Shown: piece after piece, positions 3,326-57,228 of the stretch
How positions within the stretch are numbered: position 1 is the stretch's first letter
How the letters are laid out: each line of letters begins with the position of its first letter
IMG/VR virus record: IMGVR_UViG_3300045141_000107
Coordinates: 26,206 to 90,205 of that record
Reading direction: 5' to 3' (one strand)
DNA length: 64,000 nt
From: a virus
The notes under the pieces: model-generated
The model's input: only the letters and a program-made list of their open reading frames with translations
What the model was told of the DNA's origin: nothing
Databases searched by the model: none
Made by a program: the position numbers and the translations under genes

Positions 3326-4318
3326 CTACCCTCTGAACGGGTCGTAATCAGGCTCTACCATAGCCGACCAATGAACTCGCCTGGCAAGCATCCTACGCAT
3401 CGTCTGCTCGCTTAGCTCATTGGGATCTTTCCTGTTTGCCCGCCATTGTACCACAAACACCCGTGGCACAAGCTCGGCTAGGTCTTGGCACATCTTGAAC
3501 TGAGCAATGTGTCCAGGAGCATCGTTGTCGCAAAACACCGTCACTTCATCGAAACGGTCCACTATAAGCGCTAGTTGCTCTCGGGTAAGTCCGGTTCCAA
3601 GTGCTGCGACAAAATTCTCAATTCCGTATTCGTATGCCCGGAGTGCATCTTTAGCACCTTCGACCACAACAACATTATCATATCGGGCAGCAACATACGG
3701 CAATCCATACAGGACATGGCGGCGATCAAAGTCTTTAGAGTATAGATATCTTGGGCGTTGTGTTTGGTTGACAGCTCGTCTGATGATGCCAACCCACTTG
3801 CCCTCTGCTCTAATCGGGATAACCGCTCGTTTAGATACACCATCATATCCAAGGCAAAAGCGCTTGACAGTCTCTCGACTGAACCTCCCGAACGGAATTC
3901 CATTATACCACCACCATGATTTGCCTTTCCGGTACCTTGTGATATCTAGGTCTACAAAGCTGTGTCGTGGCGGGTTCAGGATGGCATCCAATTGTGCCAG
4001 GTTGCGCTTACGCATACTTACCACATCGAGCAAGCTGCCGTACTCGCTGATAACGTCTATGGCGTCCTTGTAGGTGGTGCCCTGCGTAAGCATAACCAGC
4101 CGTGGCAGGTTGCCTCTCTCCCCACACACCCAACAATGCCATAGTCCCGTGCGCGTGTTAATCTCCAGGTTAGGCGCTCCAGTTTCCCCATGGAATACGC
4201 ACAGGGTTACAAATTCTTGTTGTATTACCTCGCCTTCTATGCGCAGTCTTTCCAATACCTGAGGCACGTTTACCTCGAGGTCGTCAAGCTGCGGCTGTGA
4301 TCTCTCCGTATATTGCAT
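3326..4318 (-). CDS. DNA primase (CHC2 zinc finger + TOPRIM)
   Basis: CVFH...WHCWVC zinc finger; VVEGAKDA and DND TOPRIM motifs. Confidence 0.9.
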   Translation of the reverse strand: MQYTERSQPQLDDLEVNVPQVLERLRIEGEVIQQEFVTLCVFHGETGAPNLEINTRTGLWHCWVCGERGNLPRLVMLTQGTTYKDAIDVISEYGSLLDVVSMRKRNLAQLDAILNPPRHSFVDLDITRYRKGKSWWWYNGIPFGRFSRETVKRFCLGYDGVSKRAVIPIRAEGKWVGIIRRAVNQTQRPRYLYSKDFDRRHVLYGLPYVAARYDNVVVVEGAKDALRAYEYGIENFVAALGTGLTREQLALIVDRFDEVTVFCDNDAPGHIAQFKMCQDLAELVPRVFVVQWRANRKDPNELSEQTMRRMLARRVHWSAMVEPDYDPFRG

Positions 4319-4499
4319 TACACTCAGGGCACCAACTGGTGGTGATAGTTACCGTTTGTATAGCTTCTCTGTTCTCTATCTGCTGTAGGTACATAAGATC
4401 TCCATGCTCTATAGCAGTCCATACAGCATTCTGGTCAACAAGATTGATGTCTTGAAGAAACACGCTATTGGGGTGGGTGCACTTACCGCTCGACGCCAT
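4284..4499 (-). CDS. small hypothetical protein (CxH/CxxC)
   Basis: 71-aa ORF overlapping both neighbours in the operon. Confidence 0.45.
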   Translation of the reverse strand: MASSGKCTHPNSVFLQDINLVDQNAVWTAIEHGDLMYLQQIENREAIQTVTITTSWCPECNAIYGEITAAA

Positions 4500-4674
4500 T
4501 GATCATCACCTTTACGGAATCGTAGCCGTGTTTTTCCAGGTAATCAGCAAGGGCTTCGTCAAGGAGTCTGTATACGGGCATACCCTGACGTAGTGCCATT
4601 ACGCGCAAGCGGCGCACCAACACTTCGTCAACACCCCTGACTGCCCACCTGTACGGGGGAGTCTCGTCAGTCAT
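4483..4674 (-). CDS. ribbon-helix-helix DNA-binding protein
   Basis: WAVRGVDEVLVRRLRVMALRQGMPVYRLLDEALADYL fits the RHH pattern. Confidence 0.6.
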   Translation of the reverse strand: MTDETPPYRWAVRGVDEVLVRRLRVMALRQGMPVYRLLDEALADYLEKHGYDSVKVMINGVER

Positions 4675-6030: not shown

Positions 6031-6930
6031 CTAGTCGTAGATACCAAAAGCTCGTCTGGTGAGCCTGTTGTTGTATTCAACTGAGGCAGCAATACTCTCA
6101 GCCTTTACTTTCTCCCAGATCCAGGGGAAGACACACTCATCATCATACTCCCCCAATTCGTCTTCGGTGTATCTCTGAGCTATTACCTCGCGAAAGTAAT
6201 AGTCATTGGTGAAACTACGTAGTCCATTGGGTTTACGCTTAGCACCCAGAAAAGCAGTCTGGATGAACACCTTCAGTTTCCAAGGTTCTCCCAGCCTGTG
6301 CAACAAGATACGTGCAGCCCCGACTTCCATAGGCCAGTTTAGCTGCGGTATTTCCCCAAACCTTACCCTGAAGACATAGGAGAAGTAGCAGACGAAATCA
6401 GGCCCAGTCCACTGGTCCACGTTGTTGCAGTGTGTTCTAAATCTCTTGAAAGGAGAACTATGCGTCTTCACCGTTTTCAAGAGACTGGGTACGTTATCGA
6501 ATACCGTACCATTACGTATATGCGCATCCCGCTGCGCATTTTCCTTTTCCTTGCCTATAATATACCTAAAGGGTACTACTTCTTTTTGGAAAACCGTTTT
6601 GGAGGCATCCATAGACCCTTTTTGGTTGCCGCTAGGAACGTGGCGAACGACCTTCTTAGGGGTACTGCCAGTAGAAACAGACTGGTTGCCCCTAGATCTA
6701 GTTTGGTTGCCCCTAATTGACGCGACTTGATATTTCGTTGGTCTGTGGCCGGTACCCACTTGAAGGACTTCCAGACTGCCGTCGTCTATAAGAGCCTTCA
6801 GTATCTTCTTGGTATACTGGCGCGACCAGCCGAATATCAAACCTATCTCAGTGCTGCCAACCCTGACGATACCTTGTACGTTACAATGGTCTTCGCACCA
6901 TACCAACACGAGGCGTTGGTTCTTAGTCAC
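6031..6930 (-). CDS. putative replication initiator (N-terminal winged HTH)
   Basis: STEIGLIFGWSRQYTKKILKALIDDGSL HTH, low-complexity linker containing DNA repeats, immediately upstream of DnaB. Confidence 0.55.
   Translation of the reverse strand: MTKNQRLVLVWCEDHCNVQGIVRVGSTEIGLIFGWSRQYTKKILKALIDDGSLEVLQVGTGHRPTKYQVASIRGNQTRSRGNQSVSTGSTPKKVVRHVPSGNQKGSMDASKTVFQKEVVPFRYIIGKEKENAQRDAHIRNGTVFDNVPSLLKTVKTHSSPFKRFRTHCNNVDQWTGPDFVCYFSYVFRVRFGEIPQLNWPMEVGAARILLHRLGEPWKLKVFIQTAFLGAKRKPNGLRSFTNDYYFREVIAQRYTEDELGEYDDECVFPWIWEKVKAESIAASVEYNNRLTRRAFGIYD
6623..6715. repeat. iteron-like repeats TGGTTGCC(C/G)CTA x3, candidate origin
   Basis: copies at 6623, 6683 and 6704; adjacent AT-rich tract ~6540-6600. 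Confidence 0.55.
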
Positions 6931-7078: not shown

Positions 7079-8584
7079 ATGGCAAGAGCATCTAGGCAAA
7101 AGATTACTGCCACGGTCGGAGGTAAACTGGTCTTACCAAGACAGCAAGTACCACGCGATCTATTTGAGGCACTCCTTACGCACCTTACTTGGGATAATCC
7201 TGAGTACACGGACCGTGTGTTCAGACAATTGAGTACGCGGATATACGACAAGAAAACGCGCACGTGGCGAGAGATACCAAAACACATCTACGGTATCGCA
7301 ATAAATGACGAGAACCAGACATACGAACTGGCAAGAGAGTTCGTACCAGAGTTCGAGAGACTGTGTGGGGAACGCGAGATAGAGATAGAATGGGACGATA
7401 GACGGGTTATACATGAAGCCCATCCTTTGCCCCACAGCATAGAATTATGGGCACCACAGATACCCGCTGTCGAGGACCTAATGCATGATGATTACGGACA
7501 TCAAGGTGTGCTTGAGGCACCATGCGGGTCTGGGAAAACAGTTATGTTGCTGTATCTCGTGGCAGAACTGGGACAGCCAACTATCATACTCGCTCATACA
7601 GATGATCTTCTCAAACAATGGCAAGATTACTGCCGCCGTCTTCTGGATTACGACCCAGGACTTATCCAAGGAGACACCTGCGACATAAAGCAAATCACGC
7701 TGGCTAGCGTAATGACGCTTGCACGTAGGCATCTGGACGACGAGTTCCTGAGCCAGTGGGGTATGATTATACTGGACGAGGCGCACCATTGTCCGGCAGC
7801 TTGCTTTCAAGAAGTAATGACACAGTTTCCCGCATACTACCGCTTTGGAGCTACTGCTACACCCAGACGGGAAGACAACTTGCAGGGACTCCTCTACGCC
7901 ATCTGTGGGCCAGTTATTGCTAAGGTACAACGTAGGGCACTAAAGCAAGCCGGACTTATTGTAGACCCCGTCGTGATGGTACAGGAAACTGGTTTCACCT
8001 ACCCGTACACAAACATGCATCAGTGGCACCCAATGGTGCGTTCTTTGATACATGATAGGCGACGTAATGCCCAGATCATCGAAAACATCATCCGAGACTT
8101 CGACAGCGGAGACCACGTCCAGCTTGTCCTATCTCAGCAAATCGACCACCTCGATCTCCTGGCAAAATCTTTACAAGAACGTCGACCTGACATTACCCAA
8201 GAGCTCCTTATCGCCGGAGGAACTAAGAAAGATAAGTACGGACATATCACACGTACTATCGGTCGTACGAAGAAGGAAAGGGCGGCAGCTATCAAGTCTG
8301 CTAGAAAAGGCGATCTGCGCGTACTTTTTGGAACTCAACTGGCAGACGAGGGACTCGATATCCCACGCCTCGACAGGCTTCACCTTGTCTTTCCCACAAG
8401 GGCACAAGGCAAGATTGCGCAGCAAGTTGGACGCATTCAACGTGTCCATCCCCGAAAGAGAGATGTTATCGTCCGTGATTACGTGGACGAACCGCGCGTC
8501 CTCAAAAACCAGTGGTTCGAGAGGCGAAAAGCTTACGTAGAAATGGAGTTAGAGATAGTCCGTGCGAATCAAAGGACGAGCTGA
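7079..8584 (+). CDS. superfamily II DEAH-box helicase (UvsW/XPB-like)
   Basis: APCGSGKT, DEAHH, TAT, GLDIP, QQVGRIQR motifs. Confidence 0.9.
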   Translation: MARASRQKITATVGGKLVLPRQQVPRDLFEALLTHLTWDNPEYTDRVFRQLSTRIYDKKTRTWREIPKHIYGIAINDENQTYELAREFVPEFERLCGEREIEIEWDDRRVIHEAHPLPHSIELWAPQIPAVEDLMHDDYGHQGVLEAPCGSGKTVMLLYLVAELGQPTIILAHTDDLLKQWQDYCRRLLDYDPGLIQGDTCDIKQITLASVMTLARRHLDDEFLSQWGMIILDEAHHCPAACFQEVMTQFPAYYRFGATATPRREDNLQGLLYAICGPVIAKVQRRALKQAGLIVDPVVMVQETGFTYPYTNMHQWHPMVRSLIHDRRRNAQIIENIIRDFDSGDHVQLVLSQQIDHLDLLAKSLQERRPDITQELLIAGGTKKDKYGHITRTIGRTKKERAAAIKSARKGDLRVLFGTQLADEGLDIPRLDRLHLVFPTRAQGKIAQQVGRIQRVHPRKRDVIVRDYVDEPRVLKNQWFERRKAYVEMELEIVRANQRTS

Positions 8585-8993
8585 ATTACTTACCTGGCTA
8601 CGGCGTAGGGCAACGCTTGATGAGAAGCGTAAGACGCTTACCCGTAGCATAGACAACATCAACGGTTGGGTACTGGCATACTATGAGCGCCACAACCTTA
8701 CCGATGTTGTAGACCCAGAAACCAAGACCAAGTGGCAGAAGCGCCAGGGTACCACACAGATCTGGAACAATGAAGAACTGAAAAAGCTGCTCAAGCGCCG
8801 CCAGGTGCCAGAGGAGCTAGTATTCAGCATTGTCCCAACGGAAGTGCGCAATGATGAGGCTATCTTCCAGCTTATGCGTGATGGCATCCTCAGTATTGCA
8901 GACATCGAAACAGTCAGCATGTTGCAGAGCCACAAACCCTACATTATTGGATTGAACAAGAATGCCAAGAAACACAGCGATACAGAAGATTAG
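8562..8993 (+). CDS. hypothetical protein (N-terminal coiled coil)
   Basis: 143-aa ORF overlapping the helicase stop. Confidence 0.55.
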   Translation: MRIKGRAELLTWLRRRATLDEKRKTLTRSIDNINGWVLAYYERHNLTDVVDPETKTKWQKRQGTTQIWNNEELKKLLKRRQVPEELVFSIVPTEVRNDEAIFQLMRDGILSIADIETVSMLQSHKPYIIGLNKNAKKHSDTED

Positions 8994-29841: not shown

Positions 29842-31430
29842 TAGAATTTGGGCGGCATGCCCTTCCTTGGTGTCTCAGAAGGTGTATTCTTCGGCATACC
29901 AATTGTGTTGTCGGTACCAGCAGAGCCAGTAGTTGTCGGACCAAGTTGTGCACCAGCCCCAACAGGACCAGTAGACAATCCAGCCCCTACAGCTCCAGTT
30001 CCAGCAGCAGCGGCTCCAGCTACTGCTGTCGCAGCACCTTCCACAGCAGTAACGGCTTGATCGATAACAGTCGGCTTGGCTGCGGATACTGGCTGTTCGC
30101 TGTAGTACCTCACACCGCTACCAACCTTGAGGGGACTAGTGTAGGGATCATAATGGTTGTCCAAAACCCACTGGTTTAGAGCCAATAGGGTAGACATGTC
30201 ATTTGGTCCCTTACTGTTCACCCTACCCATTACCTGAGAAAGTGTTTCGCCAGGATGCCTATATTCGTCAGGCAAATTGGGGTCGTTGGGATCTATGTAG
30301 CCGATGTTTGGATCAACATGCTGGAGGTTTAGAGGCTCTTCCACAACCAGCGTAGTCTCAATGTGGATAAGAGAATCTCTACCGCCAGTGTGGTCAGTTG
30401 GTGGGGTAGTGGGAGTATCCGGTACCACTGGTACTTCAGCAGGGTTAGGATCAGTGTTGTCTGGAATCTCAACAGCAACACCAGAATCCGTGGTAGCACC
30501 AGGCTTGCGCGGATCCTTAGGCCACCTGTCCTTCTCAGAGTCTGGGTTAGGCGACGTGGTGACAATCGGCGCACGGTACCTTTTCATGGAGATCGTGTAG
30601 TAAATGTCGAAGATCTCACCAGCTTTGTGTCTGTAGTTGAAGTTGGTGATTACTACCTGATCATTCCATATGCCGCCACCTACCACCAGCATACAGTTCA
30701 TCTTGAATCGCATTGTCCAGATTAGTCTGGACGTTAGCGACCTGGGATCCTCAAGCTCAGTTGGTGTGATGAACATGTAGTCTGAATCGTAGTGGCTCGG
30801 GAAGAAGCTGTCCCAGCTGATAGTCTCCATTGACTGCCCGCCAGGCATGATGATCTCACCCAGACCAACTACTCTCGGTGTCCAGTATTCATGGGTGAAA
30901 TCAGCGCCAAACTCCTCTGGCATTACGGGAAACTTGATGTCTCCACCGTATGCCCCTAAGAGTGTGATATCAATGAAATTACGCTGCGCACCCTCCCCCA
31001 TTGTGGGGGAACCATCGATCTCAACGCACGGAGTCCAGTCGTGCTTGGGATTGATCTCAATAAGATTAGGTGCACTTCTTGCTGGGACAAAGATGTTGGT
31101 GCCGCTAGCTGTCCCACCACCAGGCACTCCATTGTTCAGCCAGGGTGCATAGCCTGGAGGTGGCGGATCTTTGGTACTAAGGCCCCAGACATCTGTATCA
31201 ACTCCAAGACCTGAAGTACGCATTGTACCATCAGGCCATTTGGGGCCAAACTTTGGACCTACTGTCTCAAAGGTGTCGAACTCTACGTCGCCCTGCCAGT
31301 AAGTCTTCTTCCGCATCTCCAGGCCAACAGACCCTGGATATGTAGGATCTGTGGCATTGGGGTCAAAGTAGACTTGCTCGCCTACCTGTACGGCATCAAA
31401 GCCTTCACCTGTTTCAGGGTTCATTGTCAT
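29841..31430 (-). CDS. tail tube initiator (XkdP-like, degenerate LysM)
   Basis: FPVMPEE, GLGEI, ISWDSFFP, DIYYTISMKRYR; PGETLSQV...LALN...LKVG. Confidence 0.65.
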   Translation of the reverse strand: MTMNPETGEGFDAVQVGEQVYFDPNATDPTYPGSVGLEMRKKTYWQGDVEFDTFETVGPKFGPKWPDGTMRTSGLGVDTDVWGLSTKDPPPPGYAPWLNNGVPGGGTASGTNIFVPARSAPNLIEINPKHDWTPCVEIDGSPTMGEGAQRNFIDITLLGAYGGDIKFPVMPEEFGADFTHEYWTPRVVGLGEIIMPGGQSMETISWDSFFPSHYDSDYMFITPTELEDPRSLTSRLIWTMRFKMNCMLVVGGGIWNDQVVITNFNYRHKAGEIFDIYYTISMKRYRAPIVTTSPNPDSEKDRWPKDPRKPGATTDSGVAVEIPDNTDPNPAEVPVVPDTPTTPPTDHTGGRDSLIHIETTLVVEEPLNLQHVDPNIGYIDPNDPNLPDEYRHPGETLSQVMGRVNSKGPNDMSTLLALNQWVLDNHYDPYTSPLKVGSGVRYYSEQPVSAAKPTVIDQAVTAVEGAATAVAGAAAAGTGAVGAGLSTGPVGAGAQLGPTTTGSAGTDNTIGMPKNTPSETPRKGMPPKF

Positions 31431-45961: not shown

Positions 45962-47743
45962 CTAAAATCCCTTCAGGCTAGCAAAAGTAGATCGCAAGTC
46001 CATACCTGCTGGAACTAGGTCCTGCAACCGTAGTCCTCCACCACCTGGCCCCTCGAGAGCACCACCCACATGCAAGTCTTCTATTCTACCGCGCCCGTAT
46101 ATGTTAGCGGCTGCTTTCGCATAATTATCCGCGTGGCGATAGTGGTCATCACCCACTTTCAGCCATACAGCTACGGTGTTACCCTTGGCGTCTTCTTGCA
46201 GGTCGCGCTTCATGTTGGTCATCTGCTTGATGAACTCTTCCTGTTCCTCGTTCAGGTTCTTCAGGGGGTCACCAACCAGAAACGCCATACCATCGATCCA
46301 GTCCTGAGCACTATCGTCCAGAGTTTCAGTTCTGTCCAAGTGCATAGTGCTGGTCTCGGTTTCCTGTTCCTTCTTGCGCTTTTCCTGCTCACGCCGTTTG
46401 TTCTCGGTTATATACTTCTTCTCCTCACGCTGGTCCTTGTAGTATGCCATATACATACGCCCACGGAAGCGTTGTACTAGATCTCTCGCGTTGTGCTTGT
46501 TGGGGAGGGCGTCAATAATTCCAGACCGCACACGGTACAGACTAATGATGCTATCAATTTTGTAGAAGTCGTTGGTAACACCGAAAGCAACCACGGCCAT
46601 TCTGCCGGTGGGAAGGACTCTTCGTACAACCCAGTGGAGTAAATCACCTTGATCGACTCCAATAACGTTGAAACCTGTATCTGGGATGGATGCCTGCATT
46701 GTCCTGAGGATAGTATCACGGGTGATAAGGCCCTCGCCGGTAAGGTACGGCAGACCAAGGTCAAAGTTGTGGAAACGCTTGCGAGCGAAGTTGGTATTCT
46801 TACGCTCTACCTTGCGCCACTCTGCCCAAACGCTCGTAGCTGTAACGTATGTGAAGGTCAGTGGATTGATCCAGTACCCACGCATGCCGTCAGCAGGGGC
46901 TACCAAACGACCCTGGTCATCGTATACAGCATCCGTCGCCTTCTGTGGGTGTTTGGCTACCCATGCACCGTTACGACGGTTCAGCTTTACGCCGCATCTT
47001 CGGCACCCGAAGTATGGAGTCCCACCCTTCCGTTTGAGGAGGTTGTGCTCGAAGGTAACGTCCTGCCACTTGCCGCAGCTTGTGCATCTAACAAGCCAGT
47101 GTCTTTGATCAGTATCTTTATAGAGCGCATTGATGCCAAAGTCGGGGATGCTCGGCGTACTGAAGCGCCAGAACCACTTGAGCTTGCTAGCACCCACCCT
47201 TTTCTCGAAAGTGTCCATGACGTCTTGAGCAGAAAAATCATATTCGTCGTTGACGATGATGTCTGCAGGGACAGAAATAGCCTGGCTGTGTTTCTGAGCA
47301 CCGCGGAAGTATAGCGTACTCGCGCCCATACGTTTGAGCGTGGCATTGTCAACATTGCCCATCCTGGCACTGAGGTAGTTAGAAGCCTTGATAACTGGCG
47401 CAAATCTAGCTTGTGAGAATTCAAAAACGTCCTTTGCCGTCGGCATGGTGTAGATTGCCGTAATATTGTGGGTGTCGCAATAATACAGCAGCTTGCATAT
47501 CTGGCATGTCGTCATACCGATCTGTGAGCCCTTCTGGGCCACAATAAGCGGGTGCCAGTCCCTATATACATCCACCATAGGCAGGTGGTCCTTGAACTCC
47601 AGGGGCTCCAATTTTTCGGTGCGCAAATTTGCCCTTGCAGACATCCAAGTAATAGGGTCTATATCACCCAATATTTCGCTAGCTACAGTAGGGTTGTCCT
47701 TTATCAGTTCTGCAAAGCCAGCGGTTACGTCACTTATCGACAT
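45962..47743 (-). CDS. terminase large subunit (GpA-like)
   Basis: QKGSQIGMT Walker A, DEYD, STP, CxxC zinc finger, GVDQG, DHYRHADNY. Confidence 0.9.
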   Translation of the reverse strand: MSISDVTAGFAELIKDNPTVASEILGDIDPITWMSARANLRTEKLEPLEFKDHLPMVDVYRDWHPLIVAQKGSQIGMTTCQICKLLYYCDTHNITAIYTMPTAKDVFEFSQARFAPVIKASNYLSARMGNVDNATLKRMGASTLYFRGAQKHSQAISVPADIIVNDEYDFSAQDVMDTFEKRVGASKLKWFWRFSTPSIPDFGINALYKDTDQRHWLVRCTSCGKWQDVTFEHNLLKRKGGTPYFGCRRCGVKLNRRNGAWVAKHPQKATDAVYDDQGRLVAPADGMRGYWINPLTFTYVTATSVWAEWRKVERKNTNFARKRFHNFDLGLPYLTGEGLITRDTILRTMQASIPDTGFNVIGVDQGDLLHWVVRRVLPTGRMAVVAFGVTNDFYKIDSIISLYRVRSGIIDALPNKHNARDLVQRFRGRMYMAYYKDQREEKKYITENKRREQEKRKKEQETETSTMHLDRTETLDDSAQDWIDGMAFLVGDPLKNLNEEQEEFIKQMTNMKRDLQEDAKGNTVAVWLKVGDDHYRHADNYAKAAANIYGRGRIEDLHVGGALEGPGGGGLRLQDLVPAGMDLRSTFASLKGF

Positions 47744-48270: not shown

Positions 48271-48397
48271 CCCACGACTCATGCTCGTGCTCGATGTACT
48301 CCCTGTGCTGGTTCGCATCCCACCAGATTGCATAGACCATCAGGAGTACCACGCCAGCAAAGGCACCAGCACCAATCAAAATACTATTCTTCTTCAT
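48263..48397 (-). CDS. 44-aa single-TM protein (not in ORF track)
   Basis: MKKNSILIGAGAFAGVVLLMVYAIWWD... Confidence 0.45.
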   Translation of the reverse strand: MKKNSILIGAGAFAGVVLLMVYAIWWDANQHREYIEHEHESWDG

Positions 48398-49028
48398 CAG
48401 CAAACGCCTCCTGTCGTGCAACCCTGATAGCGCGGCTCGCCTGGCCGCTTACGTTGGACAATTGCCCGATCAGGATCCGCTGTTGTTCTGGTGGTAGCTG
48501 GTCAAAGCTTACCTTCAGCTCGTTCTTCCTCTGGTCGTAGTAGGTAATAGCGCCACCCTGAGGTGTTGTTATAGACTGCCCGTTGCTCTTCTTCAGGATG
48601 CGCTCGCGCTCCTCGCGCGTGAACTTCATGAGGTTGATTGCCTCACCCACGTTCTTGGGAAACATACCATAGCGCTTGGGGTAACGCAAGACCTCACGCA
48701 TGATATGCTGGATCTGAGTCAGTACCTTGGCGGTCTCAATGTCGTCCATTGCCAACTGCTGCAAGACGGGGTCTTCGCTGGTGCGCAGCATCCGCTGTAG
48801 CTCGTTGTGGTAGACGGCAGCTTTCGCTTCCCAGTCAAACTTGTCCCGCCATCTGGTAATGGTACCCACGGAAACTTCAGTACGTAGTTTCTCTTTGCAG
48901 ATCTTCGCAGTCTGGCTCGCGTTCTGCTCGTTGTGCAGCCAGATCCTAAACACCTTCTCGCGGAAAGCAGGCAAGTAGTGCGTCTGCTGTGCCCGCATTC
49001 TGCTTTCTCTCATTACTTTACGGCCCAT
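48384..49028 (-). CDS. putative terminase small subunit
   Basis: N-terminal HTH (VSVGTITRWRDKFDW), helical, upstream of the large subunit. Confidence 0.65.
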   Translation of the reverse strand: MGRKVMRESRMRAQQTHYLPAFREKVFRIWLHNEQNASQTAKICKEKLRTEVSVGTITRWRDKFDWEAKAAVYHNELQRMLRTSEDPVLQQLAMDDIETAKVLTQIQHIMREVLRYPKRYGMFPKNVGEAINLMKFTREERERILKKSNGQSITTPQGGAITYYDQRKNELKVSFDQLPPEQQRILIGQLSNVSGQASRAIRVARQEAFADEEE

Positions 49029-49906: not shown

Positions 49907-50249
49907 GGTCTCCCTATATGTATAGTGTATACGCTCGTAGCGCATCGCGCGTACCTTAGTAGGGTTGCAGTAGGGGTGTAGGGGGCACCCGGAAACTTTG
50001 TGTTTGTCTCAGCGGGTACCCTAAGCGGACATTAGAAGCGTCGTTGTCTGCGTCGTTTGAAACGGATCTTGTTCGAGATCGTAAGTACCTTCCCGTGTGC
50101 CGTTGGTAGGGTGGCATGGCGCGGGCCGGTACCTTGCGCTTGCTAGCTGCCTCTGCGCCAGCGCTGGCAGGCGCGGCAGGCAGGCGCTTTGCCGTTGTCC
50201 GCGGGTAGAACGCTTGTTCTGGCGCTGCCCTGGTGCGCAAGTAGGCAAC

Positions 50250-50278
50250 AAAAAAGCGCTGCCGTGTTGGCAGCGCTT
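50250..50278 (-). terminator. intrinsic terminator
   Basis: minus strand AAGCGCTGCC-AACAC-GGCAGCGCTT running into a T-tract. Confidence 0.7.
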
Positions 50279-50299
50279 GCGCTTGCGGACTGACGTAGG

Positions 50300-50593
50300 T
50301 CAGTCTGGCGAGTCGGAGTAATAGCGCCAACGGCGCAGGCGTTGTACGGCAGCGATAACCTCTGCCTGCCATTCTGTGAGCGCTGGCGCTAGCGAGTAAC
50401 GCGGTGCGGTGTAGTAGCTGGCACCGTTGGAATGGCAATCGACAACGGTGTAGCGCGGTGCCGTTGGCACTGCCTCACTGGCAGTGACAATGGTGTAGAT
50501 CCGCGCCTGCGCAGGCAGTGAGGCAGCGCAGGCTAGCCTAGGGTAGCGGTGCCATACGGCAGGCGCGGCAGTGAGGTTAGTTGTGGCATGCAT
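50300..50593 (-). CDS. hypothetical protein in the anomalous island
   Basis: 97-aa ORF between a hairpin (50611-50635) and a terminator. Confidence 0.45.
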   Translation of the reverse strand: MHATTNLTAAPAVWHRYPRLACAASLPAQARIYTIVTASEAVPTAPRYTVVDCHSNGASYYTAPRYSLAPALTEWQAEVIAAVQRLRRWRYYSDSPD

Positions 50594-50644
50594 GGCGGTA
50601 AGCCTAGCGGTGCGGCAGGCAGTGAGCCTGCCGCAGGCAGCTAG

Positions 50645-51820
50645 TTAGCTGGCGCTCCAATCCGTAGCGCCACACGCGCTACATTCCGTGTTGGTGGTGA
50701 AATTTCGAGCGGTGCAATGCTGGCAGCGCGCCGTTGAGGCAATGCCACCGTTAGGCAGCGCTTGTGCCGCTGGCGGAGTCGGAACACGCGGTGTAGCTGG
50801 CGCGGCAGGCGTGGCAACCTCTGCCGCTTGCGCAGGCGCAGGCGTTGAGGTTGAGCCGTTCCATGCTGCCAGCGCTGCCGCATCCGACGAAACGAAACGG
50901 ACGCCAGCGGTGCCGCGTGCTGCTAGTCGGAATCGACCGTCGGAGTAAAGCGCTACGCCTGCGCCTGAAAGGAATTTGAGCGCCAGCGTATCAGCGCCTT
51001 TAGGCGCGCCAGCCGCATGCGGTCCGAATCCAAACAACCATGCATCCGTGGCAGCGCTTTCGCCTCCGTCTTTGAGTCCGATTGAAAGCAAGTAACGGCG
51101 CATGACAGGCACAAGCGCCAGATAGTCGGATTTGTTGGCTACGCCTGCGCCAGCGAATGAAACGATGGAAACGTAGCGCGTGCCTGCCACGGCAGAGACT
51201 CCGCGCAAATCGCCAGACCATTCCTTGCGGAATTCGGAGTAGGCAGCGGCAGCGCGAGCGTAGACAGTCGGATCACTGTCTGCCTGCGCCAGCGCTTGCG
51301 CATTGCGCTCCGCCGTGCGCGGACCAATTGGTTTGCGGCCGACATACGGCGCAGGCGCGGCAACCTCTGCCGCTGGCGCTTGCGGTGGCGCAGGCGCGTA
51401 TTTCGTTTCGATGGCTGCGAGCATGGCTGCGAGCAATTCCGCAGGCAGGCTAGCTGCGGCAGCGGTGGCAGCGGCAATCTCTGCCGTTTTCTGCGCTTGC
51501 AACGCAACCTCTGCCTCTGCCATCGCCAGCGCTCCGCGCGCCGTTTCGAGCGCTGCCTCAAGCGCAGCACGCGCGGGATTGTCTGCCGTTAGGACTGTCA
51601 ACGCGGTTTCGATGTTGGCAACCGTTACTGCCTCTGGCAGCATGGCAGCGGTGGCAACCTCAACGGTGCCGTTTGCGGTGGGTTCGATGTTGGTAGGAAT
51701 GTCCGTACCCTCAACTGTTGGAACGCTGGCAGGCGTGTTGTCTGCCGCTGGCGTGTTGTCGATTGTCGCTGCCTCTGCCTGCGCAGCTAGCTTTTCAATT
51801 AGGCGCTTTGTCGCTGCCAT
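50645..51820 (-). CDS. Ala-rich protein with C-terminal zinc ribbon
   Basis: GGGAG RBS before ATG 51820; coiled coil, central globular region, CQHC-x10-CSAC. Confidence 0.7.
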   Translation of the reverse strand: MAATKRLIEKLAAQAEAATIDNTPAADNTPASVPTVEGTDIPTNIEPTANGTVEVATAAMLPEAVTVANIETALTVLTADNPARAALEAALETARGALAMAEAEVALQAQKTAEIAAATAAAASLPAELLAAMLAAIETKYAPAPPQAPAAEVAAPAPYVGRKPIGPRTAERNAQALAQADSDPTVYARAAAAYSEFRKEWSGDLRGVSAVAGTRYVSIVSFAGAGVANKSDYLALVPVMRRYLLSIGLKDGGESAATDAWLFGFGPHAAGAPKGADTLALKFLSGAGVALYSDGRFRLAARGTAGVRFVSSDAAALAAWNGSTSTPAPAQAAEVATPAAPATPRVPTPPAAQALPNGGIASTARCQHCTARNFTTNTECSACGATDWSAS

Positions 51821-52021
51821 GTCGTGTCTCCCGCGCTGCCGTGTTGATTTGGTTGGTTCGGAGCGCTGCGGCAATTATGTATCTACGCATAGAATCGCGC
51901 CGTTACACTCAACCGCTTGTACTTGCATACATCGTTCTGGCGCTTGCGCTTGCCAGGGCCAACGCTGGCAAGTTTTGTAACGGCGGCAGTTTGGCGCGTG
52001 GTACAAAAAGTCGGTACAAAT

Positions 52022-52208
52022 CTCAACCGCGCTCAACCGCTTTTTGCTGCCGCTCAACCGCTTTTCGGCGGGTTACGGTAAAGCGGTTTTTCGTTGGATT
52101 TTTCGTAGGCAGTCTGCCGCAGGCATTACTTGCGCTTGCACGTTTGCATTTGATAACGGCGCGCCATTTGATAACACGGCGTCACCCGTACGCGTACGTA
52201 CGCGTACG
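52022..52208. repeat. CTCAACCGC x3, CATTTGATAAC x2 and a 22-bp perfect palindrome
   Basis: copies at 52022, 52032, 52053 (also 51908); 52147, 52165; CGTACGCGTACGTACGCGTACG at 52187-52208. Confidence 0.8.
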
Positions 52209-52220
52209 CATTTACTTGCG

Positions 52221-52485
52221 TTAGCACGTGCTAATGTGCAAGCGTTAGCCGATGCTAACGGCCTTAGCCCCAGCTAAGCGCAAGCGTTAGTTAGCACATA
52301 CTAACAGCCGCGGACAGCGCAAACTGGCAACGTTAGCATATGCGAACGCCAGGGCAGCGCAAGTGCAAACTAACCTCCTTAGTATGTGCTAACTTGCAAG
52401 CGCAGCATGTGCAAACTGCAAGCGTTAGTTCGTACATGCTAACGTCCTAAGCACGTGCGTGCTTCGGGACGCAGTGCGTGCTAAG
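52221..52485. repeat. array of 14-bp palindromes TTAGC-N4-GCTAA
   Basis: copies at 52221, 52245, 52264, 52291, 52333, 52379, 52429, plus degenerate copies near 52402, 52448, 52471. Confidence 0.85.
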
Positions 52486-52502
52486 GCACGCCGCGGCGTC
52501 AA

Positions 52503-52730
52503 TAGAAACTACTGTCTCTCCCCAGATTCGTGCCGAATTTTGGGAATTCACCGTCTCTCGTGGGGTCGGGCCCAGATCGTGATCTGCTGATCGGGATCGT
52601 GTACTGAAGGAAGTGACCGACCTACAGATCGGGATCAGGATCCTTTAGAAACTACCGTCTTTCCCCAGATCATACCAGATTTTACATGAATACACGGCAA
52701 TAAAACGGGAATCTACCGTCTTTCTGGGGG
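52503..52730. repeat. duplicated 25-bp units enclosing a GATC cluster
   Basis: TAGAAACTACYGTCTYTCCCCAGAT at 52503 and 52646; GATC at 52575, 52581, 52589, 52595, 52627, 52633, 52639, 52668. Confidence 0.8.
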
Positions 52731-53108
52731 ATAACTCAAGATTACAGACGTCAATCATGCCTAGATGGAGAGATCTTCACATGAACAACTACACATGCAC
52801 GAATTTTACTACGAAATTGATACAGAACAAACATTATTCATTACATACTACCTGCTGTTGCACTGAGGGACTAGGTATACCGAGCTCTTTTTAGCGATTA
52901 CTTATAGATCAGATAGTCGCGTCGCACAACAGTGTTTGCAAATATCTAGACCGGGGATATCCAGACGGGGTATCTAGCATGGGGGTATCCCAAACCATAC
53001 TACCTGTGTTTCAGGGCTTGATCAGGGAAAGAATGCAACTAAGGCGCAAGGTACCGGAATATATCATGGTCGTACAAAGAGGCACCAAATATCCAGCAGT
53101 GGGGATAT

Positions 53109-53498
53109 CTAGACGGGGGTATGTGGACAATAGCCTCTCATACCATACGACCAGTTACAATTCATACACAATGTACGGAATGTAGTGGGGTAGTTCTCGC
53201 GTATGATGCGTAGGTATGCCTGAAAACTGTTCTCTGGGTATGGCTTGCCGCCGATATGATCTATGTTTAGGAATTCCTCGTGCTGCTCCCCACAACACAC
53301 GCATTCCCACCCATAGTGGTTGAACACTTTGATCCGGATCTCTTTCCTTAGCTTAGCAAGGCGCAAGTTGTTCTGTTCCCTGCGGCAATAGATACAGACT
53401 GTCCCACCCTGAAATGTACCACCCGCGATCGTACCAGTGTTGCCGCACCGACACACACGTCTCTTGTTCCTACGGCTTATGACTATACGTTTCAGCAC
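53109..53498 (-). CDS. HNH endonuclease
   Basis: HYG.ECVCCGE....LNIDHI...LCMNCN. Confidence 0.75.
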   Translation of the reverse strand: MLKRIVISRRNKRRVCRCGNTGTIAGGTFQGGTVCIYCRREQNNLRLAKLRKEIRIKVFNHYGWECVCCGEQHEEFLNIDHIGGKPYPENSFQAYLRIIRENYPTTFRTLCMNCNWSYGMRGYCPHTPV

Positions 53499-53625
53499 TA
53501 CCCATATTATACCATACGTAGATCACGATCTATATTTCAGCACAATAAAGGCCACCTTTCTAGGGGTGGCCCATCTAGACGGAGGGGGTATTGGGGCGAT
53601 TACTTGGCTGCAATACGGGAAGCAA

Positions 53626-53904
53626 TCATGGGTGCTGAGGTCGTGTCAGATTTTCAGCTTTCACAATACGATTGGCTTCCACAAGCCCGCAACTGTTCGT
53701 GCGGCAGGTAACCCAGACACGTGCCACGTAAGAGTTCTGGAGCTGAATAAGTGCCACGCCGTTCTGCATTACCACCCAATGGAGGCCATCCTGCATGAGA
53801 ATGTATCCCTTGTATGCAATCGTACCTGCACTTTCGTTGTAGAACCCGTTCTGTACCGCCAGCTTGTACACCTGGAGGCGTGTGCTTTCGTTGCGCATTG
53901 CTTC
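53626..53904 (-). CDS. hypothetical protein
   Basis: within ORF 53626..53943; AAGGAAG precedes MRNESTR; start approximate. Confidence 0.4.
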   Translation of the reverse strand, partial: EAMRNESTRLQVYKLAVQNGFYNESAGTIAYKGYILMQDGLHWVVMQNGVALIQLQNSYVARVWVTCRTNSCGLVEANRIVKAENLTRPQHP

Positions 53905-54719
53905 CTTAGCTGAAATAATCACTGTGGTGCCCTCGCCGAACATTATACCACCTGCCTATTTCTCAATAATGTAGAGCACACAAATGATCATGAGAGCACA
54001 CCACACCGGAAATGGTAGGGAAGCAATCAAGTTCACCCACCAATCGAAAGCGTATGTGTAGTGATGCAATTGTTCTAGCAGTGCCTGTTCCATGGTCTAT
54101 CGGTCCACGTATTTCTGTCCTGGCTGCACCCAGGCTGCATTCCCAACCATGATGGCTGGACCACGGCTGTCCAAGTACACCACCAGATAGTTGTACTTCG
54201 TACCCTTGATTAGCTGTGTGAGGGCGCTCTTACGCGCCGCCACACTCTTGTAAATGCGCCACTCCATTACGCTTCAGCCTCCACTTCCTGGTGCTGTGCT
54301 TCAATCCAGCTTTCAATGCCTTCCTGGCAGGTGAAACGGCGTGCGTGCTGATGCACGTAGCCGTTCTTATCCATTAGCCGCCAGAAGTCGTCACCACAGT
54401 GCACGTATCTCACTCCATGCATTGTGTATTGCTGAAAGTGTGCCATCTTAGCCAATGAACCCCGAACCAACTGCCCAGACGCCAGCCACAACCACCAGAC
54501 TGTAAACCGTTCCAGCCATGAACGCTACCAGATAGCCCATTGTTCTCACTCCTTAGCGGGCAGGCTTCAGCAGCCTGTGGACCCGCAGGTACTCAGCCGC
54601 AACCTTGCGGCTAATCTTGTAGGGGCGGTACGGGAGTACGCCCCTATCCATGTACGGCTGGCGTCCGTTTACCAGCAGATAGGCATCAGTGCCCCAGAGC
54701 TTGTACGTGGCCTGATGCA

Positions 54720-55875: not shown

Positions 55876-56355
55876 TCCATTACCTTAGCAGGCTTGCCAT
55901 GTCCAGCCGTTGGCATTCACTCACGGGCAGACGTGCTTCAAGCATCTCCTTGTACACTAGCTTTTCTGCTAGTGTGTGATTGGCATGTGCGTAGTGGTGG
56001 TCTGGGAGACAGATAACCATCTCACCAACACTGATGCGGTACTCTCGCCTGTCACGCAACACCATGCAGATGCGACAATCATAGCCTGGTTCGAAGGTTG
56101 AAGGGAGGGGCAACTGCCCCTCGAACTCCAATGGTACGCGGTACATTTCAGTCCTCGCTGTATGCGTCATGCTCCATGGTGAAGCCGTTGTCCCGCATAC
56201 GATAAGGGCAACCCACGCAGGAGTCTTCGTCATCCACCGTGTTGCACGGAGGGCAACCATTGTCCCAGTCGCTGTTGATTGGGAGACCAGCCGCACTGGC
56301 CTCCAAGTACAGCGCCGCTAGACGCTGGTTCAGTTCTTGCAACTTTGTCACTATC

Positions 56356-56731: not shown

Positions 56732-56761
56732 AGTATAGGGCATGGACGCTCTGGTTAGGTT
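56732..56761 (-). promoter_or_regulatory. repeated early promoter (weak -35)
   Basis: accAGAgcgTCcatgccc-TATACT followed by a TAGGCAA/TTGCCTA hairpin. Confidence 0.5.
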
Positions 56762-57228
56762 CAGTTGACCCAACCATCTCCCGCTAAGATACGGCTGATC
56801 TGCGAATGTGCTACTTCGAATCTCCGTGCTAGATGCCTTTGACTACATCCAAGGACACAATACAGAAAGATTATTGCCTGAACCTGTCTGTATGTTAGTC
56901 TAGCTGAACCATGCCTTTCTCCTACAGCCTGTCGCCCCTTAGCCACCATGTCATCCATGTTCACCTGTTGTGTACCTAGGAACAGATGGCTTATCTCACC
57001 ACACACTCTGTTATCACATGTGTGTAGAACTTGTAATCCTTCAGGCGCTGATCCATTATGGTGTGTCCACACTAGAATATGAACCCGCCATAATCGTTGG
57101 TGGTATCTAACTAGACCGTACCCATTATCCGACAGTGGCCGTCCGCTCCAGTTTCTGCATCCAGTGACAGGGTCTAGTATTAGCCTAGTCTCTATATCAG
57201 TCCATGTTGCGCGACGGCCTTTAGTCAT
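56761..57228 (-). CDS. HNH homing endonuclease with C-terminal HTH
   Basis: GCRNWSG, GYG, VH, VLHTCDNRVC...HLFLGT...NMDDMVAKGR. Confidence 0.9.
   Translation of the reverse strand: MTKGRRATWTDIETRLILDPVTGCRNWSGRPLSDNGYGLVRYHQRLWRVHILVWTHHNGSAPEGLQVLHTCDNRVCGEISHLFLGTQQVNMDDMVAKGRQAVGERHGSARLTYRQVQAIIFLYCVLGCSQRHLARRFEVAHSQISRILAGDGWVN

Follow-up and report, generated by a model that had tools for sequence, protein, structure and literature searches.

A lineage-specific array of dyad sites beside a conserved repeat module at the head of the terminase operon in a group of soil phages

In phage lambda, the cosB segment consists of three R sites bound by gpNu1 and a site for IHF, and phage 21 has a counterpart. 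Specificity switches between relatives are known for cosB of lambda and phage 21, for the iterons of lambdoid origins and for parS of P1 and P7, while lambda ori, P1 oriR and oriC provide models of replication origins. In P1, the pac site lies inside pacA and has seven TGATCA/G hexamers, arranged 4+3, around the cut site (PMC10028697). In T5, iss is located in an untranslated region of 1.2 kb, at the boundary of the terminal repeat, that is crowded with palindromes and with direct and inverted repeats; in some relatives an HNH gene splits it (10.1101/866236). For Acinetobacter phage EAb13, direct terminal repeats of 2,177 bp are described as starting about 4.1 kb upstream of the terminase gene (PMC10508131).

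The DNA analysed here, the window, is a stretch of 64,000 nucleotides (bases 26206-90205) of a 90,205-bp contig that has no terminal redundancy and represents a phage genome. A crude call gave 122 ORFs, almost all on the minus strand. Twenty sequencing runs contain the sequence, all of DNA and all as assembled unitigs, and they come from soil, rhizosphere and root metagenomes. A blastn search of 51000-54000 against 50,697 phage records returned no match, and the large terminase is less than 28% identical to that of any deposited phage; it falls in phrog_675 together with the large terminase of EAb13. Family searches identified a DnaB-like helicase, a primase, an SSB, a DNA polymerase, a UvsX-like recombinase, an endonuclease VII and a DNA methyltransferase, and gave no match to integrase, repressor, ParA or ParB families. 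A thymidine-modification block (genome 21761-26422; L012 3762-8423), which runs into positions 1-217 of the window, encodes a 5-hmdU DNA kinase helical domain (PF18723, 239 bits), a radical SAM/SPASM protein and a deoxyribosyltransferase-like protein, so the thymine read by any protein that binds the array may be modified.

This phage group is known from metagenomes only, and half of its genes belong to no family. The 1.25-kb gap that holds the array is its one obvious cis-acting control region, and orienting, engineering or rebooting such genomes requires the start points of packaging, of the ends or of replication. We consider the array to be best read as a functional cis-acting DNA element.

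Anatomy of the dyad sites

The first-pass annotation had described palindromic TTAGC-N4-GCTAA sites in 52221-52485, and all seven sites that it listed are present, within 52221-52442. Site 1, TTAGCACGTGCTAA (52221-52234), is perfect and palindromic over its whole 14 bp; site 2, TTAGCCGATGCTAA (52245-52258), and site 3, TTAGCCCCAGCTAA (52264-52277), have perfect arms; site 4, TTAGCACATACTAA (52291-52304), site 5, TTAGCATATGCGAA (52333-52346), and site 6, TTAGTATGTGCTAA (52379-52392), have one mismatch each; and site 7, TTCGTACATGCTAA (52429-52442), has two. The stretch 52221-52485 holds 3 sites without mismatch, 6 with at most 1 and 7 with at most 2; for the entire 90,205-bp genome the corresponding numbers are 3, 7 and 28, and all three perfect sites and six of the seven sites with at most 1 mismatch are inside the array. 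In 2000 dinucleotide-preserving shuffles of these 265 bp, the mean was 0.05 and the maximum 2 at up to 1 mismatch (6 seen), and the mean was 0.42 and the maximum 4 at up to 2 mismatches (7 seen); the genome background density is 0.06 sites per 265 bp. Because every perfect site and six of seven near-perfect ones are located here, the array is a single cis site and not a dispersed operator. The threefold occurrence of GCAAGCGTTAG was also correctly noted (starts 52238, 52280 and 52418). As for the degenerate extra copies that had been added to the seven sites, 52447-52493 contains no further 5-4-5 sites; it is a separate G+C-rich inverted repeat with a 19-bp tandem (1.9 copies), placed between the array and the conserved repeats. 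As it lacks a following T-run, this inverted repeat is not an intrinsic terminator. Interleaved with the sites are two copies of a second motif (52308-52371, minus strand; gene strand AGTTTGCGCTGYCCNGG), which read on the plus strand as CCGCGGACAGCGCAAACT at 52308-52325 and CCAGGGCAGCGCAAGTGCAAACT at 52349-52371.

Collecting 14-mers with T1, T2, G4, C11, A13 and A14 fixed across the relatives gave 62 sites, 38 of them distinct. Their consensus is TTWGYRYRYRCWAA, i.e. GTTAG-(YR)3-CTAAC, with constant outer TTAG and CTAA around a core of mostly alternating pyrimidine and purine. The sites have dyad symmetry, the two half-sites starting 9 bp from each other, and the uncommon 10-bp and 18-bp versions retain the ends of the 14-bp form. 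The arms show no covariation at mirrored positions (of 38, 24 were symmetric with 25.2 expected, and 21 with 18.2 expected). Since the arm variants are independent, we infer that the half-sites are read by a protein dimer, and a hairpin is disfavored. To this extent the proposal of a loading platform for a dimeric protein is borne out, by the dyad sites, the fixed outer bases, the independent arms and the conservation in 10 of 11 sequences, but the roles that had been named for the platform are not.

A reading that involves no protein, in which the palindromes would be RNA hairpins in a long leader, DNA cruciforms or Z-DNA, or a functionless tandem repeat, is improbable. Both strands do fold better than shuffles (z -3.2 and -4.8), but any set of palindromes must outfold shuffles, so the folding score cannot discriminate. 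Most site cores alternate pyrimidine and purine, and a perfectly alternating 23-nt purine-pyrimidine tract, CGTACGCGTACGTACGCGTACGC (52187-52209), adjoins the promoter-distal edge of the array; however, the sites of one relative, L004, are non-alternating. RNA structure is further countered by the lack of covariation between the arms, by the many sites that are palindromic to the center and leave no loop, and by the absence of any Rfam match at E up to 1; a tRNA scan was negative. A functionless repeat would also have to retain TTAG...CTAA despite the turnover of its units.

The spacing of the sites had been called irregular. Tandem Repeats Finder indeed reports no period for the array of the window, but the spacings are not arbitrary. 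Successive sites in the window are 24, 19, 27, 42, 46 and 50 bp apart, and 46, 42, 50, 27, 23 and 19 recur among the relatives (19+27 = 46; 42+50 = 92), which defines a 23/46-bp lattice in two phases, offset by 4 bp. The lattice is exact in L005, where Tandem Repeats Finder gives a 23-bp period with 6.7 copies. With no such period in the window, sites that are unlike one another and linkers that recur, the array is neither a CRISPR nor a simple tandem repeat, in agreement with the first description.

The suggested resemblance to SlyA and CIRCE sites fails on spacing. The SlyA box TTAGCAAGCTAA is the 12-bp palindrome TTAGC-AA-GCTAA and has the TTAGC/GCTAA half-sites in common with the array, but its spacer is 2 bp, compared with 4 bp in all seven window sites. 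CIRCE, the operator of HrcA, shares half-site letters; its arms, TTAGCACTC and GAGTGCTAA, are 9 bp long and separated by 9 bp, whereas the array has arms of 5-7 bp and a spacer of at most 4 bp. The KorB operator OB, the 13-bp TTTAGC(G/C)GCTAAA (PMC11790492), has the same half-site, TTAGC, but a 1-bp spacer in place of 4 bp, and the phage has no ParB_N domain.

The non-coding gap and its repeat module

The array is located in the largest non-coding gap of the genome (~51821-53108, about 1.25 kb), between the terminator-like hairpin (53572-53549) that closes the upstream gene block and the operon with the likely small and the large terminase gene. The gap is the only large non-coding region and heads the operon that contains both terminase genes, a position that favors a role in packaging or at a genome end. 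In the gene direction, the gap begins with three GGGGATATCYAGACGGGG repeats, followed by an A+T-rich stretch, the bipartite repeats with their GATC cluster, the G+C-rich hairpin, the array with the second motif, the alternating 23-mer, two GTTATCAAAT words, three CGGTTGAG repeats and the start of the gene for an Ala-rich protein.

The GGGGATATCYAGACGGGG repeats occupy 52938-53118, upstream of the A+T-rich stretch, and their counterpart in L004 is a set of CCCCGTCTAGATA repeats at about 3650-3690. The CGGTTGAG repeats lie on the minus strand at 52022-52065, with a fourth at 51915, and these are four of the five gene-strand copies in the genome; in the same place upstream of the Ala-rich gene, L004, L005 and L146 carry a CAATCAANCGNTTGATTG palindrome instead. 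The word GCTGGGGC may be Chi-like. The gap also contains mobile-looking insertions. The window has an HNH-like ORF (53109-53498, minus strand) that is absent from the relatives, and L007 has a LAGLIDADG-like ORF and a small RHH-like ORF (about 740-1170 and 1540-1760), the latter lying between two of the repeats of L007, with its own sigma-70-like promoter and palindromic operator.

The array stands directly downstream, in the gene direction, of a module of four bipartite direct repeats of ~35 bp (52503-52730, minus strand; gene strand AAATCTGGCC-N10-RRGACGGTAGTTTC). Read on the plus strand, the copies are at 52503-52527, 52542-52565, 52646-52670 and 52707-52730, two on each side of a cluster of seven GATC in 68 bp (52575-52642), which is arranged 4 + 3 with 28 bp between the groups and holds four of the seven GATC-N2-GATC pairs of the genome. 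The bipartite repeats are present in all 11 distinct sequences compared, in 4-7 copies each and with GATC clusters, and their core GACGGTAGnTTC is near invariant over 42 distinct units. Two other explanations of the GACGGTAG repeats were discarded. As RNA hairpins they should covary, and the 42 distinct units show no compensatory changes; as promoters they should be dispersed in the genome, and the full bipartite form (AAATCTGGCC half plus GACGGTAG core) occurs in this module only, the seven other gene-strand GACGGTA copies inspected all lacking the upstream half (an eighth, at -9417, was left out). By analogy, the module looks like the pac site of the conserved small terminase.

The same surroundings could instead belong to a replication origin, in which the palindromes would act as iterons for a phage initiator and the GATC cluster with the A+T-rich stretch as a methylation-sensitive unwinding region. 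We regard this as possible, though on the unlikely side. The 7 to 14 sites follow one another at about two helical turns, 7 GATC fall within 68 bp, and the A+T-rich stretch, 52600-52999, has the lowest G+C of the neighborhood (42-43%). Lambda-type origins likewise have palindromic iterons of ~19 bp, about two helical turns apart, whose specificity switches between relatives, and the lineage-specific switch seen here would match that of lambdoid ori and O-protein pairs. Lambda, however, has its four iterons inside the initiator gene, whereas the 7-14 array sites are non-coding and about 45 kb from the replication genes; iterons in general are also more often direct repeats than palindromes. The phage does encode the DnaB-like helicase, primase, SSB and polymerase that such an origin would use, along with a wHTH protein beside DnaB, and with all genes on one strand replication from here would be co-directional with transcription. 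For this wHTH protein (6031-6930), the candidate initiator, a comparison of only three sequences gave no clear covariation with array type, and 51.8-53.2 kb contains no consensus DnaA box (TTWTNCACA), of which the whole genome has two, at 30370 and 58371.

The position of the array between the terminator-like hairpin of the upstream block and the first gene of the operon would also suit an operator array, or a transcriptional roadblock, that times the late operon of packaging and structural genes. In this case the DNA that separates the first late gene from a promoter upstream would be covered by a phage regulator, and 14-bp dyads are classical repressor operators. A CATGATA box precedes the first repeat and reads in four relatives as an extended -10 element (TGnTATAAT or TGnTATGAT), but the box of the window itself is degenerate and a sigma-70 scan finds no promoter on the gene strand. 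TATA-like hexamers are found 40-60 nt ahead of the start of the Ala-rich gene. On the other hand, a regulator with 7-14 operators at a single promoter and no other in 90 kb would be unusual, and no Cro/CI, MarR or other HTH family scores over its cut-off anywhere in the genome in six-frame profile searches. We judge this reading unlikely.

Conservation and exchange among relatives

With the terminase, the 214-aa protein and the Ala-rich protein as queries, 11 distinct sequences were obtained, the window included (WIN, L134, L136, L147, L137, L139, L146, L005, L006, L007 and L004). L003, which equals L004 at 1499 of 1500 bases, and the duplicates L143, L145 and L149-L153 were left out of the count. 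The first-pass annotation had made its claim depend on conservation in relatives, and a TTAGC-type array is found in the same place, right after the last bipartite repeat, in 10 of the 11 sequences. These ten retain the array type in spite of strong divergence in the next gene and in the non-coding DNA on the flanks. Within each locus, sites with up to 1 mismatch are confined to the array (for example 6 of 6 in L005 over 21.8 kb, 6 of 6 in L007 over 13.2 kb and 7 of 7 in L146 over 6.3 kb). L134 has no site at this threshold; its five sites are TTAGTACGTACTAA-like. Site 3 of the window is part of a gene-strand element, GCGCTTAGCTGGGGC, which with its variants occurs in 8 of the 11 relatives. 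The second motif occurs in its GCGCTKTCCGCGG form in 6 of the 11, including L004, and in related GCGCTGCCCNGG forms in four others.

The most closely related sequences reveal how the array changes. The flanks of the window, L134, L136 and L147 are almost identical, and their 214-aa proteins are identical (over full length in the first three and over the 110 residues within the locus of L147). Their arrays differ by a 46-bp deletion and a 76-bp insertion, and the insertion carries the three perfect sites. Among these near-identical phages the inner six bases of the sites drift and the outer TTAG...CTAA is constant. This constancy through the turnover of units argues for selection.

L004 has a different half-site at the array position. 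Its 11 TCCGA/TCGGA half-sites, in both orientations, follow an exact 9-bp lattice (4145 + 9n) and include three perfect TCCGA-N4-TCGGA palindromes. The genome of the window has no TCCGA-N4-TCGGA site at up to 1 mismatch, and the 13.9-kb locus of L004 has one TTAGC-like site at that threshold. In the terminase tree L004 pairs with the window (support 92/93), nested among TTAGC-type phages, and it is nested in the weaker portal tree too; the TCCGA type is thus derived. The GCGCTTTCCGCGG second motif and the GCGCTTAGCTGG element are still present in L004, so only one component of the region was exchanged. The terminases of relatives that differ in half-site and lattice are 91% identical. The switch is therefore a natural experiment for finding a new DNA-binding protein and how its sites are read, possibly on DNA with hypermodified thymidine.

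The exact 14-mer AGACGGTAGTTTCT is found in at least 117 stretches of IMG/VR, and among the matches listed only the contig of L004 is related. A locus search with the Ala-rich protein returned nothing for the single sequence and only five already known contigs for the alignment, and the distant phages EAb13 and Lana, of the same terminase family, contain no comparable palindrome array.

The switch in L004 bears on the possibility that the array traps a host protein, either as a T5-like injection-stop signal or as a sponge for a host regulator. A close relative, nested among the TTAGC-type phages, that carries a different half-site at the same spot argues against the sponge for a shared host repressor that had been proposed; a shared host factor would leave this difference unexplained unless the hosts differ. 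The 1.25-kb repeat-packed gap with its HNH-like ORF in the window and LAGLIDADG-like ORF in L007 does recall T5 iss, and no binder was found among the candidate phage proteins, but the T5 model needs paired DnaA boxes and there is no consensus box here. A host-protein trap is very unlikely.

Candidate binding proteins and comparison with described systems

The large terminase subunit (45962-47743, minus strand; phrog_675, GpA_ATPase) is encoded 4.5 kb downstream of the array. The array lies 3.2 kb upstream of the gene for a 214-aa protein (48384-49028, minus strand) with an HTH-like segment at its N terminus. The latter has no Pfam or PHROG match, but its language-model neighbors, which carry Terminase_5 (score 0.95, 178 shared features), make it the likely small terminase subunit. 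Relatives share 81-86% identity in this protein, with an HTH-like segment that is nearly identical between TTAGC- and TCCGA-type phages. We rejected it as a cosB-like binder of the array since this segment does not covary with array type; we infer instead that it acts at the bipartite repeats, which are equally conserved.

The first gene downstream of the array encodes the Ala-rich protein (391 aa; 50645-51820, minus strand), which has a coiled N-terminal half, a central domain, a Pro/Thr linker and a C-terminal CxxC...CxxC zinc ribbon. Residues 165-322 are modeled with confidence (pLDDT above 90). Foldseek found no PDB match at E up to 0.001, and in VIA-align long helices alone match (best Z 7.6). 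The protein has 39 homologues at E up to 0.001 that belong to no Pfam family and are named 'hypothetical protein' only, apart from one 'ribosomal protein L40E' label; the family has been seen in this phage group alone, with 38-47% identity among relatives. It too was set aside as the binder, as its alignment has no L004-specific pattern and its fold no match. The block between the Ala-rich and small terminase genes differs in every relative, and in L004 alone it includes a 427-aa Pro/Thr-rich ORF on the opposite strand (7340-8623, minus). The small opposite-strand ORFs of this block match no families and were dropped as candidates.

RHH, HTH and small-terminase proteins had been put forward as binders. 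An RHH-like ORF (63 aa, 4483-4674) and a 71-aa ORF lie within 4284-4674 on the minus strand, between the DnaB-like helicase and the primase. This RHH protein is an insertion that only this genome has; in two relatives the DnaB and primase genes abut. The small terminase does not covary with the array, and the wHTH protein shows no clear pattern in three genomes. Weak matches to HTH_3 and MarR fall inside an HNH_3 endonuclease ORF (56761-57228) that has no homologue in the loci of relatives searched, the best MarR score being 12.1 bits against a cut-off of 24.6. One lead only is a Cys-rich small protein (55883-56146), present in every TTAGC-type locus long enough to include its position (three), whereas L004 has two unrelated ORFs instead; this tracking of array type, 3 versus 1, occurs in a hypervariable block, and a search of the Atlas with the protein gave no lead.

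The protein content also weighs on the partition-like centromere that had been suggested, a plasmid-type site bound by ParB, ParR or an omega-like protein. A fixed lattice of short sites that take either orientation, clearest in the 9-bp form of L004, recalls the centromeres of ParR, ParG and omega, and TTAGC is also the half-site of the KorB operator (PMC11790492). However, a six-frame search at E up to 1 found no ParB_N match in the genome, while a control search was positive in 11 of 14 genomes. ParA, ParM, TubZ, integrase and repressor families gave no match either, the gene content is that of a lytic phage, and the sole RHH protein is the private insertion. We hold this reading to be highly improbable. 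Taken together, the readings other than a packaging end, an origin or a late-operon operator are unlikely, if collectively not negligible.

Our tentative preference, which we hold at somewhat less than an even chance, is that the array is a lineage-specific, protein-coated accessory block of a packaging or genome-end region. A candidate phage-encoded, sequence-specific dimeric DNA-binding protein would coat the array cooperatively and form a nucleoprotein block just downstream of the pac-like module. The 2+2 bipartite repeats around the 4+3 GATC would be the binding and cutting region of the small terminase itself. The array would be the fast-evolving accessory part that anchors or bounds the packaging complex at the DNA that enters the head first, comparable in action to lambda cosB or to the repeat blocks at the repeat boundaries of T5 and T7.

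Several observations temper the packaging-end reading. The genome was read only as assembled unitigs. Unitig depth is ~2x over 50057-52027 in runs X1 and X2 and not in X3 and X4, but in these two of four runs it is confounded with a G+C island. The island (50000-52000, 61-68% against 47-52% in the flanks) spans the gene of the Ala-rich zinc-ribbon protein and the next small gene; because the deeper stretch matches it exactly, the depth may be due to sequencing bias, and it may otherwise reflect a collapsed terminal repeat or sharing between strains. A 127-bp 'direct terminal repeat' of a complete relative proved to be an assembly overlap only. Between the array and the small terminase gene, 3.2 kb away, are two to four genes of no assigned function, and neither the small terminase nor the Ala-rich protein covaries with array type, nor does the wHTH protein in any clear way. 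EAb13 and Lana share the terminase family and lack a comparable array. In addition, a replication origin would equally well account for the GATC clusters, the A+T-rich stretch and the iteron-like sites.

A doubtful further reading is that the array and its candidate cognate protein form a self-contained, fast-evolving and swappable 'address label' at the genome end of this new soil phage group, whose thymidine is modified. Such a label would decide whose DNA is packaged, or how far DNA enters, in co-infection, and the wholesale swap from a TTAGC dimer lattice to a TCCGA 9-bp filament lattice would be a change of address. It would be a specificity module like T5 iss or cosB but outside the known families, with a binder of new fold.

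Compared with lambda cosB, the array similarly would lie between the cut region and the terminase genes, in the first DNA packaged, and its specificity differs between close relatives. cosB, however, has three R sites and an IHF site where the array has 7-14 dyad sites on a 23-bp lattice, and it is tens of bases from the small terminase gene whereas the array is 3.2 kb away and does not covary with the small terminase. The likeness to P1 pac concerns the neighboring module and not the array: the module also has 7 GATC, 4 + 3, with a central spacer and flanking repeats, but the P1 hexamer form TGATCR (PMC10028697) is found in only one of the seven GATCs of 52575-52642. As in T5 Repeat Region 3, the layout of the gap is better conserved than the neighboring ORFs and some relatives have homing-endonuclease insertions; the T5 region has a mapped terminal-repeat boundary and paired DnaA boxes, whereas the gap is known from unitigs, has no sequence similarity to it and belongs to an unrelated family (10.1101/866236). 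By the features tested the array is a member of none of these systems, but it would work like the multi-site protein platforms of phages.
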